Origin: a plasmid
Reading direction: 5' to 3' (one strand)
DNA: 64,000 bases
NCBI RefSeq assembly: GCF_058153355.1
Contig: NZ_JBLWLY010000002.1
How positions within the stretch are numbered: position 1 is the first letter of the stretch; each line of letters opens with the position of its first letter. This document shows, piece by piece, positions 24,001 to 27,000 of the stretch. Position numbers: made by a program.

Positions 24001-27000
24001 CAGGCCGGAAGGTGGTATCAACAAAAATGTTACCAGGATATGCCGCGCCAGCGGCATGTAAGGCGGCACTCCGTTGTTGCACATGGCAGAGGAGTAAAAC
24101 CGCCGAAGCCCGGCGTAAGCCGGTACGGTCGTCCGGATATCACCGATCCTCCTCCAGCCCTGCGAGGCAATGCGGCCTGTCAGCGATGAAAATGCCTCTG
24201 TGCGCGGTCGGAGTGGTCCCGACAAGGGGTTACTTTTACCGTTACCTCTGTGGACGTAACCGCACTCAAAGAAATTGTATATACCAGACCAGTTGTATCA
24301 AGCTTATCTGAGGTAGCCTGAGTTTAACGGACACTCCTTCCTGAAATAGAATGGCATCAGAAGGAGCCAATAATGAGCAGAAAAACCCAACGTTACTCTA
24401 CGGAGTTTAAAGCCGAAGCCGTCAAAACGGTTCCTGAAAATCAGCTTTCGCTCAGTGAAGGCGCTTCCCGATTATCTGTTCCTGAAGGCACTTTAGGACA
24501 ATGGGTTACCGCCGCAAGAAAAGGGCTCAATACACCTGGCTCCCGCACAGTGGCTGGAAGTTATGCAACTGCGTAAGGCTTTAAATGAAGCACGACTTGA
24601 GCGAGATATATTAAAAAAAGCAACAGCGTATTTTGCCCGGGAGTCGCTGAAAAATACGCGTTAGTCGAACAATGGCGACAACAATTCCCTGTTGAAGCGA
24701 TGTGTCGGGTACCTGGTGTATCCAGGAGCGGTTATTACGACTGGGTACAGCATGCCCCCTCAGACAGAAAACAAAGTGATGAGCGGCTAAAACTGGAGAT
24801 TAAGGTGGCACATATCCGCACTCGCGAAACATATGGAACCCGGCGGCTCCAGACGGAGCTGGCAGATAACGGAATTATCGTCGGTCGTGACAGACTGGCA
24901 CGTCTTCGTAAGGAGCTGAGGCTGCACTGTAAGCAGAAACGCAAGTTCAGGGCGACCACAAACTCTGACCACAATCTGCCGGTTACGCCGAATCTGCTGA
25001 ATCAGAACTTTACGCCCACAGCACCTAATCAGGTCTGGGTCGCAGATATAACGTATGTTGCCACCCGGAAAGGATGGCTGTATCTCGCCGGCGTCAAAGA
25101 TGTTTATACGTGCGAAATTGTCGGTTACGCCACGGGAGAGCGCATGACGAAAGAGTTGACGGGTAAAGCCCTGTTTATGGCGCTCAGGAGCCAGCGCCCA
25201 CCTGCCGGGCTAATCCACCACTCCGAGCGAGGTTCACAGTACTGCGCATACGATTACCGGGTCATACAGGAGCAGTCTGGTCTGAAAACATCAATGTCGC
25301 GTAAAGGTAACTGTTACGACAACGCTCCGATGGAAAGCTTCTGGGGAACGCTGAAAAATGAAAGCCTGAGCCACTATCGTTTTAAGAGCCGGGATGAAGC
25401 CATCTCAGTAATACGGGAATACATTGAGATTTTCTACAATCGTCAGCGTCGTCACTCTCGTCTGGGGAATATCTCCCCGGCAGCCTTCAGGATAAAATAT
25501 TATCAGATGACTGCTTAGAAAAAGAACAAATGGTGGTGTCCGCTATTGCCAGTACACCTCAGCCGGGTCGTTATTCTGGAAGTCAGGGGACGCTGGATGG
25601 AAGCAGCTGAAGCATGGCGGCGGGCTGCCTGTATCGCTCCCCGGACAGACTGGCAGCAGTTTGCCCGGAAAAGGGCTGAACACTGCCCCCGGCGCTGCCG
25701 GGAAAGGGGGTAACGAAAAAAGCAGCCTTCATTACACCAGGTGTCAGAAGGCTGAAAGGAGTTTGTTTATGTGATTTGCTTTTTAATATCCGGTCGGGCA
25801 GTATGAGCCCTGAGTATCAGGGAGTCTTTTCCGCATTAAGTCGATTTTTATATTTTGTGATTAATTTCACAAAATAAGGTGTTGTTCAATGTGTGCTGCA
25901 ATATTCAGGATGCCTGATATACAGGTGCCATTTATTTGATATGGAGAATAACATGAGGAAATATATTCCACTGGTATTATTTATCTTTTCATGGACGGTA
26001 TTGTCTGCAGATATTCATGGACGGGTTGTTCGTGTACTGGACGGTGATACCATCGAGGTAATGGCCTCACGGGAGGCGGTGCGGGTCAGGCTGGTAAATA
26101 TTGATGCACCAGACGGAATGAATGTTAATCAGTTTATGGTTCGGGCCGGGGCTGTCTGGATATATGAGCAGTACAACACAGATACTGTGCTGCCTGTCCT
26201 TCAGAATGAAGCCAGACAACAAAAACGTGGGATCTGGTCAGATGCTGATCCTGTTCCCCCCTGGATATGGAGGCACCGTAAATAAAGCGATGGCAATTTT
26301 ATCATTCATCTGTTCTCAGCGGGAATCAACATGGCGAAAACAAAACAGGAATGGCTGTATCAGTTACGGCGATGTTCATCAGTCAATACCTTGGAAAAAA
26401 TTATTCATAAAAACAGAGACAGTTTATCGACCAGTGAACGTGAATCATTTAATTCGGCAGCAGACCACCGGTTAGCAGAATTAATCACCGGAAAGTTATA
26501 TGACAGAATACCAAAAGAGATATGGAAATATGTAAGATAATAATTCAGCATAATTAATCGCCCAAGGGTAGATAAATAATGAAGCTGATTATTCTCATTG
26601 TTTTGATTATTGCAGCGTTACTTATCCGGATTATCCTCAAAAGTGTAAATCAGCATTCTCCTTTGCTGATGCAGTTGCATGCGGCAGGTATACGGACCGG
26701 TGATGCAGAGCGAATACCGGCAACGTCAGGAGACACTGCTGACAGAAAGGGAAGTCAGTTTTATGAAAGGGCTATTCAGAATTGTGGATATGAAGCGGTG
26801 GTATCTGTGTCCGCAGGTACGGATCGCTGATATCGTCCAGCTGAACGGGAATATCCGGCCACAATCACGCCCGTGGTGGCAGTTATTCAGAGTGGCACGT
26901 CGATGTGGTTATCGTTGGCGGCGTACGTTCAGTATTGTTGCAGCAATTGAGCTGGATGATGCCAGCCATTTACGACCGGAACGCAGGTGCCGGGATATTC

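Follow-up and report, generated by a model that had tools for sequence, protein, structure and literature searches.

The Shigella pINV-like virulence plasmid analyzed here raises the question of which function, if any, has conserved a GC-rich, stem-rich element that occurs twice in the window, i.e., in the whole stretch of 64,000 nt of contig NZ_JBLWLY010000002.1 (assembly GCF_058153355.1) under study. An earlier, sequence-only reading had weighed three options, namely a structured RNA, a signal carried by single-stranded DNA, and a recombination site linked to an IS. In this study, we propose that both copies are very probably homologs of the IncFII 'G site', a primase-dependent single-strand initiation signal that corresponds to ssiA in R100. 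The most fitting view is that they are left over from former IncFII replicons and are not working parts of pINV replication.

Two copies and their surroundings

By blastn, 24039-24233 (copy 1) and 37078-37267 (copy 2) are 84.6% identical along 195 nt (E 1.6e-58). A repeat finder splits this similarity into a block at 89% (24039-24144/37078-37183) and a second one at 88% (24154-24233/37188-37267), and pairwise alignment is concordant. All three methods locate the two copies where the sequence-only reading had placed them, but the start of copy 2 shifts from 37093 to 37078. The previously given length of ~190 bp describes the repeat; judged by the family, the unit measures ~270 nt. In the family comparison, copy 2 runs on to ~37324-37335 and copy 1 ends early at ~24231-24233. 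The middle part had been described as variable, which does not hold for the family-invariant CCCTG inside it (24158-24162 in copy 1; 37192-37196 in copy 2). Two stems singled out earlier, CCCGGCGTAAGCCGG and TCGGAGTGGTCCCGA, are genuine conserved hairpins according to the consensus structure and the covariation analysis.

Both copies reside in a mosaic, IS-ridden plasmid, and neither adjoins an origin. The sequence of copy 1 is 100% identical in pWR100 and other pINV plasmids and shares 81-82% identity with the element of R100 and pEC_B24. It covers positions 9-209 only of the family HMM (E 1.5e-32) and deviates at 65 of the 149 family-conserved columns, with 49 of these 65 deviations in the 3' domain, and no replicon context is kept. 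Copy 2 covers HMM positions 9-293 (E 2.4e-72) with just six deviations at the 149 columns. It is flanked by the single match to the Ter sequence in the whole window; R100 and pEC_B24 have the same site on the stretch that separates oriR from the element. Going by the textbook polarity of Tus-Ter, helicase arriving from oriR would be faced by the Ter closest to the element, a point that counts against the G-site reading. The adjacent palindrome falls within an 88% match to R100 (window 37078-37441) and belongs to the IncFII post-oriR region. The 80-bp repA fragment, which shares 98.75% identity with the repA gene of pINV from S. dysenteriae, abuts this post-oriR region directly; therefore oriR and the 3' 600 bp of repA have been deleted, leaving copy 2 intact but orphaned.

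A 105-aa ORF on the minus strand (23765-24082, GTG start) shares with copy 1 the left 44 nt only, i.e., ~14 codons, and matches no family in Pfam (curated cut-off) or NCBIfam, bearing out the earlier claim that conservation follows the element and not the ORF. The nearest IS to copy 1 is a four-copy repeat starting at 24309. Two promoter-like sites, 24274-24301 and 24324-24352, fall beyond copy 1.

Table 1. Parts and neighbors of the two copies, in window coordinates (A3, family alignment)
Feature	Positions	Strand	Remarks
Copy 1, probable G-site homolog, decayed and truncated	24039-24233	+	5' hairpins, spacer, CTG box and first ~30 nt of 3' domain only
Copy 1 hairpin III, ATGCCGC-loop-GCGGCAT	24040-24057	+	A3 columns 27-44; compensatory changes in 4/7 pairs family-wide
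Copy 1 hairpin II, GGCGG...CCGCC long stem-loop	24062-24104	+	A3 columns 49-94; pairs 100% kept, one covarying
Copy 1 hairpin I, CCGGC-GTAA-GCCGG	24110-24123	+	Found in 22/22 family sequences
Copy 1 invariant CTG of CCCTG box	24160-24162	+	Predicted template site of primer start; CTG in 22/22
Copy 1 3'-domain remnant GCGCGGTCGGAGTGGTCCCGACAAGGG	24202-24231	+	Homology ends here; right-hand helix partners missing
Copy 2, probable G-site homolog, complete	37078-37335	+	88-89% identity to R100 90152-90519
Copy 2 hairpin III	37079-37096	+	Consensus structure, DNA fold, covariation, conserved-column comparison
Copy 2 hairpin II	37101-37143	+	DNA fold of copy 2 gives same stem as copy 1; covariation
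Copy 2 hairpin I	37149-37162	+	DNA fold; kept in 22/22 family sequences
Copy 2 invariant CTG of CCCTG box	37194-37196	+	Predicted primer start
Copy 2 3' domain, nearly invariant, branched	37236-37324	+	RNAalifold consensus; reproduced by copy 2 MFE
Ter-like (Tus-binding) site GAATGTTGTAACTAA beside copy 2	37367-37381	-	Exact match to GNATGTTGTAACTAA
Long GC-rich palindrome, T/A runs both sides, bidirectional terminator-like	37389-37435	.	Read from sequence
Internal repA fragment, 80 bp	37437-37516	-	Corresponds to R100 88984-89063 (blastn, tblastn vs R100 replicon)

A structured module of IncFII replicons

In replicons of the IncFII family, the element forms a conserved module that is found past oriR, 610-900 bp after the repA stop. 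Since PLSDB searches returned at least 5000 near-identical IncF plasmids, the family was built instead from a RepA-based, element-blind scan of species-dereplicated genomes, which yielded 37 IncFII-family loci with RepA identities of 58-97%. The element was detected by nhmmer in ~28 of these 37 RepA-anchored loci, on the strand opposite to repA in every locus, and at least 5000 sequenced plasmids of enterobacteria carry it. In the plasmid records inspected, it is either unannotated or hidden under a spurious 'hypothetical protein'. The only full match in R100 lies at 90242-90525, between repA/oriR and tir, with the DnaA box TTATCCACA at 89845-89853, and in pEC_B24 the order is repA stop, DnaA box, AT-rich oriR, terminator, Ter and element. 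The invariant CTG of R100 (90395-90397) is located ~365 nt beyond the estimated end of the 188-bp oriR and 21 nt ahead of the stop of a 128-aa ORF (90032-90418), which is probably repA4.

The full unit comprises three 5' hairpins, a pyrimidine-rich spacer, the CCCTG box and a branched 3' domain; in alignment A3 the box is invariant and the 3' domain almost so, with divergent flanks. The consensus structure has 98.3% of its cells paired. Compensatory changes occur at 10 pairs, compared to 2.1 +/- 1.1 in shuffled alignments (0 of 500) and 1-4 in slid controls, with the structure under test taken from the same alignment; the lack of covariation that the sequence-only reading had named as a possible counter-argument is thus not what the family displays. 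Hairpin I has a variable loop and compensatory stem variants (CCCGC/GCGGG and GCGGC/GCCGC), and in helices 3-7, which belong to the 3' domain, pairing reaches 97-100% and five pairs carry compensatory changes. In the 3' domain of copy 2, an outer stem closes a long arm with a terminal GGG-TTTA-CCC hairpin and a second arm, AGCGGGCC-GTGAG-GGCCGCT. This domain has conserved G:T wobbles at A3 columns 198/284 and 213/241. Overall, 42 G:T cells stand against 6 A:C cells, which favors the + strand of the window, i.e., the leading-strand template. Folding energy does not discriminate between the strands of copy 2 (z -3.55 for +, -3.67 for -) and was dropped as uninformative for strand choice. A candidate minus-strand terminator, CGCCGGGCTTCGGCG followed by GTTTTACT, was rejected as a family feature because most family members lack the T-run.

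The CTG box provides a link to the primase origin of phage G4. A matrix built from A3 columns 152-176, which were picked after a likeness to G4 had been noticed by eye, was scanned across both G4 strands and ranked a site with CTG at 3996-3998 first among 11,154 positions. This site is the annotated primer RNA start (misc_feature 3970-3997, primer RNA; rep_origin 3998), three matrix variants are concordant on it, and the orientation of the box agrees with the G4 template strand. In phage alpha3, the best HMM match is non-significant and falls in the CTG box of the G-H intergenic region. The oric of G4 and of relatives such as alpha3, a primase-only complementary-strand origin, resembles the plasmid element in its single-stranded template, its CTG start, the box that follows on the template 3' side (CTGCAAAGCCAAAAGGACTAA in G4 vs CTGCAAAGCCAAACCCACTAA in a Hafnia plasmid, 18/22 identical) and its GC-rich 5'-side hairpins with GNA/GNRA-like loops. 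The layouts differ as well: stem-loop I of G4 lies 3 nt from the CTG, whereas a pyrimidine-rich spacer of ~40 nt occupies this place in the plasmid elements, and the large conserved domain 3' of CTG has no counterpart in G4. No significant similarity between G4 and the plasmid element was found beyond the CTG box.

A hairpin-adjacent TACTG (37163-37167), which occurs in R100 and copy 2, is similar to the arrangement in G4, where CTACTG comes after stem-loop I. As a primer start it was rejected: its CTG is not conserved beyond R100-like sequences and reads CGG in copy 1. The downstream CCCTG is preferred because it is invariant and bears the G4 homology; since the hairpin-adjacent TACTG is not family-conserved, the exact primer start is a prediction.

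The proposed G site and its rivals

IncFII replication in R1 and R100 starts with the opening of oriR by RepA and DnaA, followed by downstream unwinding by DnaB. The strand opposite repA, ~365-400 nt past oriR, then folds into SSB-resistant hairpins. DnaG primase alone recognizes this G-site fold and starts a short RNA primer at CTG, its initiation trinucleotide, after which DNA polymerase III extends the primer as the leading strand, away from oriR. Replication runs away from repA, and the leading-strand template is consequently the strand opposite to the repA sense. Further marks of the G site are a place beyond the ter sites and, around the primer start at CTG, limited homology to the G4 oric. 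The G site or ssiA of R1/R100 (NR1) was reportedly the subject of work by Masai and Arai in 1989, Nomura et al. in 1991, Bernander et al. in 1992, Jiang et al. in 1993 and Tanaka et al. in 1994. The leading-strand start is said to lie ~380-400 bp downstream of oriR (Masai and Arai; Bernander) and 'in repA4 near its 3' end' (Jiang), and two conserved domains, both required, are said to enclose a dispensable variable domain (Tanaka). In the full-text literature searched, G site, ssiA and repA4 were found in passing mentions only.

The position of the R100 CTG presumably fits both the reported start distance and the reported location at the 3' end of repA4. Likewise, the two conserved domains of the module around a variable one are what we take to be the architecture described in 1994. 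As delimited here, both conserved parts are present in the family and in copy 2, and copy 1 lacks ~2/3 of the 3' domain. Copy 2 resembles the R1/R100 G site in its 88-89% identity to the R100 segment at the reported G-site place, its strand, its Ter and terminator neighbors, the invariant CTG and the two conserved domains around a variable stretch. Unlike the G site, the window copies have no neighboring oriR, and copy 1 in addition misses most of one of the two domains that are said to be required. That the module is the experimentally defined G site is inferred from the reported position and architecture together with the tests run here; priming would depend on SSB and DnaG only. The + strand of the window would be the active one. 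Primers are predicted to start at the T of the CTG, which is position 24161 in copy 1 and 37195 in copy 2, and synthesis would proceed toward lower coordinates.

The fold itself could also be that of a structured non-coding RNA transcribed downstream of oriR, as covariation and a stable fold suit RNA equally with single-stranded DNA and the G:T wobbles of the + strand would become G:U in a + sense RNA. We consider this very unlikely. Rfam scans returned nothing at either copy at gathering thresholds (whole window) and nothing over copy 2 (37078-37335) at relaxed thresholds (36700-37600), and a simple scan found no promoter-like site in 36900-37600. Moreover, the G4 site matched by the invariant box is a primase start on a DNA template, with register and template strand in agreement, and position and orientation relative to oriR are constant, as expected of a replication signal. 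Such a signal might in turn be a PriA-dependent (phiX174-type, n') primosome assembly site instead of a primase-only site. Assembly sites likewise typically take the form of hairpin-rich single-stranded DNA close to a plasmid origin, and n' sites are also present near oriR in IncFII replicons. Yet, the CTG-box matrix scores 12.2 at the G4 primase origin vs 6.7 at best in phiX174, there in a coding region, and the invariant CTG is the trinucleotide used by DnaG, making an assembly site highly improbable.

Conjugation offers another setting for a single-stranded signal. Frpo elements are single-stranded leading-region promoters, represented by ssiD/ssiE of F and ssi2/ssi3 of ColIb-P9 (PMC9849209; bioRxiv 10.1101/2023.02.15.528439). 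Like the element, they are hairpin-forming single-strand DNA signals of F-like plasmids whose RNA is usable as primer, but they are read by RNA polymerase via a stem-rebuilt -35/-10 pair and lie in the leading region. An Frpo-like promoter or other leading-region signal on the transferred strand gains some plausibility from a half-length relative (hairpins III, II and I plus CTG box) near oriT of F (65395-65534) and R100 (49805-49941), which is located on the transferred strand, ~600-750 nt from oriT. This relative lacks the 3' domain, of which both window copies have the start, and the full-length element maps to the vegetative replicon every time, so that the leading-region association considered earlier does not apply to it. 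Frpo1 (58100-58621) and Frpo2 (63489-64011) of F are 89.6% alike and match neither the window nor the family HMM; no HMM or BLAST match between element and Frpo was obtained, including the Frpo regions of R100. No promoter-like hexamer pair was found in either copy by a scan for contiguous duplex promoters, as distinct from stem-rebuilt hexamers. The candidate was rejected, and its probability is next to negligible. The single-strand DNA priming site suggested by the sequence-only reading was right in kind, but it forms part of the vegetative replicon, where it follows repA-oriR, rather than of a conjugative leading region. Hardly more credible is a passive remnant without a signal of its own, such as an IS-associated recombination site or what is left of a decayed gene, either repA4 or the 105-aa ORF. 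The R100 element does overlap the 3' part of the 128-aa ORF, and copy 1 overlaps the start of the 105-aa ORF with an IS nearby. However, a repA4-length ORF is confined to two R100-like sequences, the overlapping ORFs of 21 other replicons vary in position and length, and no single ORF persists across the family where the element lies. For these ORFs, no family scored above the curated cut-off, and compensatory pair changes are unexpected under coding constraint. The IS option, also raised earlier, gains no support: ~30 replicons carry the element free of any IS, and ~75 nt of unrelated sequence separate copy 1 from its nearest IS.

Implications for IncFII replicons and pINV

G-site homologs themselves are already known biology, and the present result refines this knowledge and adds no new biology. 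The family alignment provides a sharper comparative picture than that reportedly available from the 1990s, comprising the CCCTG box, the G4 match and the covarying branched 3' domain. A more speculative and rather unlikely extension is a two-module signal, with the 5' module reused near oriT in F and R100 and the orphan copy 2 perhaps serving as an accessory primase entry or restart site. If true, primase could start complementary-strand synthesis in the recipient at the half-element, a role credited only to Frpo. The main value of the G-site assignment lies in annotation: the element would be missing from Rfam because it is not an RNA, and its recognition keeps new ncRNAs or ORFs from being called wrongly. 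The element also shows where an IncFII replicon lies or once lay and how it is oriented; in the window, the two copies would testify to a pair of dead replicons in the past of this mosaic Shigella virulence plasmid.

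The repeated module and its fold

The sequence-only reading had described a GC-rich element present twice, and pairwise alignment, a repeat finder (families D14 and D17) and blastn all pair 24039-24233 (copy 1) with 37078-37267 (copy 2), the blastn match covering 195 nt at 84.6% identity (E 1.6e-58). Two well-conserved blocks flank a more variable stretch of 35-40 nt. pWR100 and about 60 other pINV plasmids of Shigella/EIEC carry copy 1 with 100% identity, which marks the window as part of a pINV-type virulence plasmid; the neighbours of this copy include ospF, ShET2/ospD3 and phoN2. 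In PLSDB, either copy finds at least 5000 plasmids with 80-90% identity; the majority are conjugative IncF plasmids from Escherichia, Klebsiella, Salmonella and Shigella. The 105-aa ORF (23765-24082, minus strand), without a family above curated cut-offs, covers no more than the leftmost 44 nt of copy 1, and no ORF is conserved across the element in the family, in agreement with the earlier view that conservation tracks the element and not a protein. An ORF of 128 aa in R100 (90032-90418), probably repA4, is present only in two R100-like sequences.

In the 22-sequence family alignment A3 the full unit measures about 270 nt and has a fixed order of building blocks (see table). RNAalifold gives the 3' domain a branched structure, which also emerges when copy 2 is folded as DNA at minimum free energy (z -3.55). 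The suspected structure is backed by covariation: in A3, from which the tested structure itself was taken, 98.3% of cells are paired and compensatory double changes occur at 10 pairs, against 2.1 +/- 1.1 in shuffles (0/500) and 1-4 in slid controls. Hairpin I is found in 22/22 sequences; its loop varies, and two variants of its stem are compensatory. Both types of control and the occurrence of compensatory changes across several different sequences argue that the fold is real. Folding energy does not separate the two strands. Among the A3 pairs, G:T cells outnumber A:C cells by 42 to 6, two conserved wobbles included, which favours the window + strand, opposite repA, as the folding strand. In a replicon replicating away from repA, as R1 and R100 do, this strand is the leading-strand template.

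Coordinates and composition of the element, its surroundings and related features
Feature	Position (strand)	Description
Hairpin III	window + strand (A3)	ATGCCGC-loop-GCGGCAT
Hairpin II	window + strand, after hairpin III (A3)	long
Hairpin I	window + strand, after hairpin II (A3)	CCGGC-loop-GCCGG
Spacer	between hairpin I and CCCTG (A3)	pyrimidine-rich
CTG box	A3	invariant CCCTG, then semi-conserved: CCCTGC(C/A/T)A(G/A)(A/G)CC..AAACCC
Linker	between CTG box and 3' domain (A3)	short
3' domain	A3	~90 nt, almost invariant across genera
R100 repA	88812-89669	
R100 DnaA box of oriR	89845-89853	
R100 element	90242-90525	sole full-length match
R100 tir	90608 onward	
5' half duplicated or separated	L008 4434-4907	K. 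pneumoniae
5' half duplicated or separated	L018 4459-4904	P. stewartii
5' half duplicated or separated	L033 4516-4983	K. grimontii
5' half duplicated or separated	L025 4469-4876	Enterobacter
Half-length relative, F	65395-65534 (-); L006 15395-15534	hairpin I degenerate
Half-length relative, R100	49805-49941 (-) (L003)	hairpin I intact
3'-domain-like piece, F	40686-40786 (-) (L005)	E 2e-10; 5' half absent; ~3 kb from RepFIB repB
Ter site, window	37367-37381	exact GAATGTTGTAACTAA, beyond copy 2; terminator palindrome also kept
repA internal fragment, window	37437-37516	80 bp = R100 88984-89063; directly after Ter and palindrome
Ter-like sites, R100	L004 ~40075-40095, 40215-40235	two, inverted, between oriR and element
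Segment left of copy 2	36308-36990	~94% identity with small (4-kb) plasmids of E. coli
ColE1-type RNAI	36799-36925 (-)	44.3 bits (Rfam gathering score 47)
Second copy of RNAI segment	50889-51378	87-94% identical
AS-pc02 (antisense to pHK01_099)	25610-25797 (-)	161 bits (Rfam); IncF-plasmid antisense RNA
Group II intron domains (RF00029, RF01999)	5772-5849 (+), 12571-12648 (-), 14205-14321 (-)	Rfam
IncF backbone remnant	27022-27154	133 bp, 90.6% identical to R100 87901-88038, just upstream of copB/repA2
Tandem array	31974-32093	8-bp unit CTTTTGCT, ~11 copies, centre perfect

A component of the IncFII replicon and putative G site

In pEC_B24 about 630 bp separate the stop codon of the IncFII repA from the element match downstream of it, an interval that contains the DnaA box TTATCCACA, oriR, which is AT-rich, a GC-rich terminator and a Ter-like site. 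For a family sample blind to the element, a RepA alignment was scanned against one genome per species, which yielded 37 IncFII-family loci (RepA identity 58-97%) from Klebsiella, Citrobacter, Enterobacter, Pantoea, Erwinia, Mixta, Izhakiella, Yersinia, Hafnia, Cedecea, Buttiauxella, Serratia and others. The element was located by nhmmer in about 28 of them, in every case on the strand opposite repA and always 610-900 bp past the repA stop; loci without it are mostly contigs ending too early or the most distant replicons. Given this constant strand and spacing, the element is a syntenic, orientation-fixed component of the IncFII replicon. In several replicons of the family the 5' half is duplicated or lies about 150 nt apart from the 3' domain; internal rearrangements of the module thus occur or are tolerated.

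Leading-strand synthesis of R1 and R100 is reported to need priming by DnaG alone and to begin at the 'G site', some 380-400 bp downstream from oriR (Masai and Arai 1989), with confirmation in vivo reported by Bernander et al. (1992). The start has also been reported to lie within repA4, near its 3' end (Jiang et al. 1993). The site, ssiA in R100, has been described as a G4-type signal (Nomura et al. 1991) and is reported to resemble G4 only near the primer start and to require two conserved domains with a dispensable one between (Tanaka et al. 1994). The invariant CTG of R100 (90395-90397) lies about 365 nt beyond where the 188-bp oriR is estimated to end and 21 nt ahead of the stop of the repA4-like ORF, so that the reported features all fit. 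From this position and architecture we assign the family, with high but not complete confidence, as the putative IncFII G site. The element is already known biology, left unannotated in databases.

The GenBank annotation of phage G4 places the primase primer at 3970-3997 and the complementary-strand origin at 3998, where the template at the primer start reads ...GCCGCCGTCCCTACTGCAAAGCCAAAAGGACTAAC. When a position matrix of A3 columns 152-176 was scanned on both strands of the G4 genome, the top of 11,154 positions was the site with CTG at 3996-3998, in register and on the template strand, a rank that is no clean p-value because the columns were picked after the resemblance had been noticed. 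Two further matrix variants, one being CTG plus 7 nt only, agree on this site, and the Hafnia plasmid box CTGCAAAGCCAAACCCACTAA is identical to G4 CTGCAAAGCCAAAAGGACTAA at 18/22 positions. That the matrix falls exactly on the primer start annotated in G4 can nevertheless hardly be put down to chance. In phiX174, where priming proceeds via PriA, the best matrix score is about half that of G4 and belongs to a site within coding sequence. The top HMM match in alpha3, non-significant, falls on an intergenic CCTCCTGCTAAGCCCAAAAAGG box.

Among the options raised by the sequence-only reading, a structured RNA gained no family from Rfam, which has no match to either copy in a scan of the whole window at the gathering threshold, nor over copy 2 in a relaxed scan of 36700-37600. 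A single-strand priming signal was right in kind, as the G-site fit indicates, and wrong in its supposed leading-region origin, as the element resides in the vegetative replicon. The RNA-polymerase-read promoters Frpo1 and Frpo2 of the F leading region (58100-58621 and 63489-64011, 89.6% alike) were rejected as its identity: they have no match in the window and are missed by the family HMM, and in R100 nothing comparable to the element was found at the Frpo elements. F and R100 do carry a half-length relative, distinct from Frpo1/2, on the transferred strand, flanked by the DUF932 gene (ygeB) and SLT gene X, at a distance of about 600-750 nt from oriT. It comprises hairpins III, II and I and the CTG box TCCTGCCAGACCAT, without the 3' domain, and may itself be a relic because its hairpin I is degenerate in F. 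A piece like the 3' domain occurs elsewhere in F.

Fate of the two copies

In copy 1 (24039-24233) the hairpins and the CTG box are preserved and the spacer has extra changes, but of the 3' domain only the first ~30 nt are homologous; this domain accounts for 49 of the copy's 65 deviations from family-conserved columns. No replicon sequence lies next to copy 1. On its right side, an unrelated stretch of about 75 nt leads to a repeat (from 24309) that is present four times in the window and is probably an IS element. Copy 1 is best read as a relic that probably cannot prime. The strong AS-pc02 match lies just past this probable IS. The IncF backbone remnant is oriented opposite to copy 1 and adds to the evidence that IncF replicon debris has been scrambled here. 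Elsewhere in the window, the group II intron domains indicate one or more such introns, or pieces of one, and a tandem array is present.

Copy 2 (37078-37335) is intact and departs from the family at 6 of the 149 conserved columns. On its left it adjoins a segment with a ColE1-type RNAI match, which recurs in the window. Of the two Ter-like sites of R100, the window retains only the element-nearest one, which by Tus-Ter polarity would face a helicase moving from oriR to the G site. The repA fragment adjoins post-oriR sequence, so oriR and 600 bp of repA have been deleted. The homologous locus of the S. dysenteriae pINV underwent another deletion: repA is intact, while oriR, Ter and most of the element are gone, about 46 nt of the latter being kept (L045 3829-3874 versus window 37078-37123). 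Each of the two pINV lineages thus saw its own, independent decay of the ancestral replicon. Copy 2 is likewise best read as a relic, which could in principle prime if the + strand became single-stranded.
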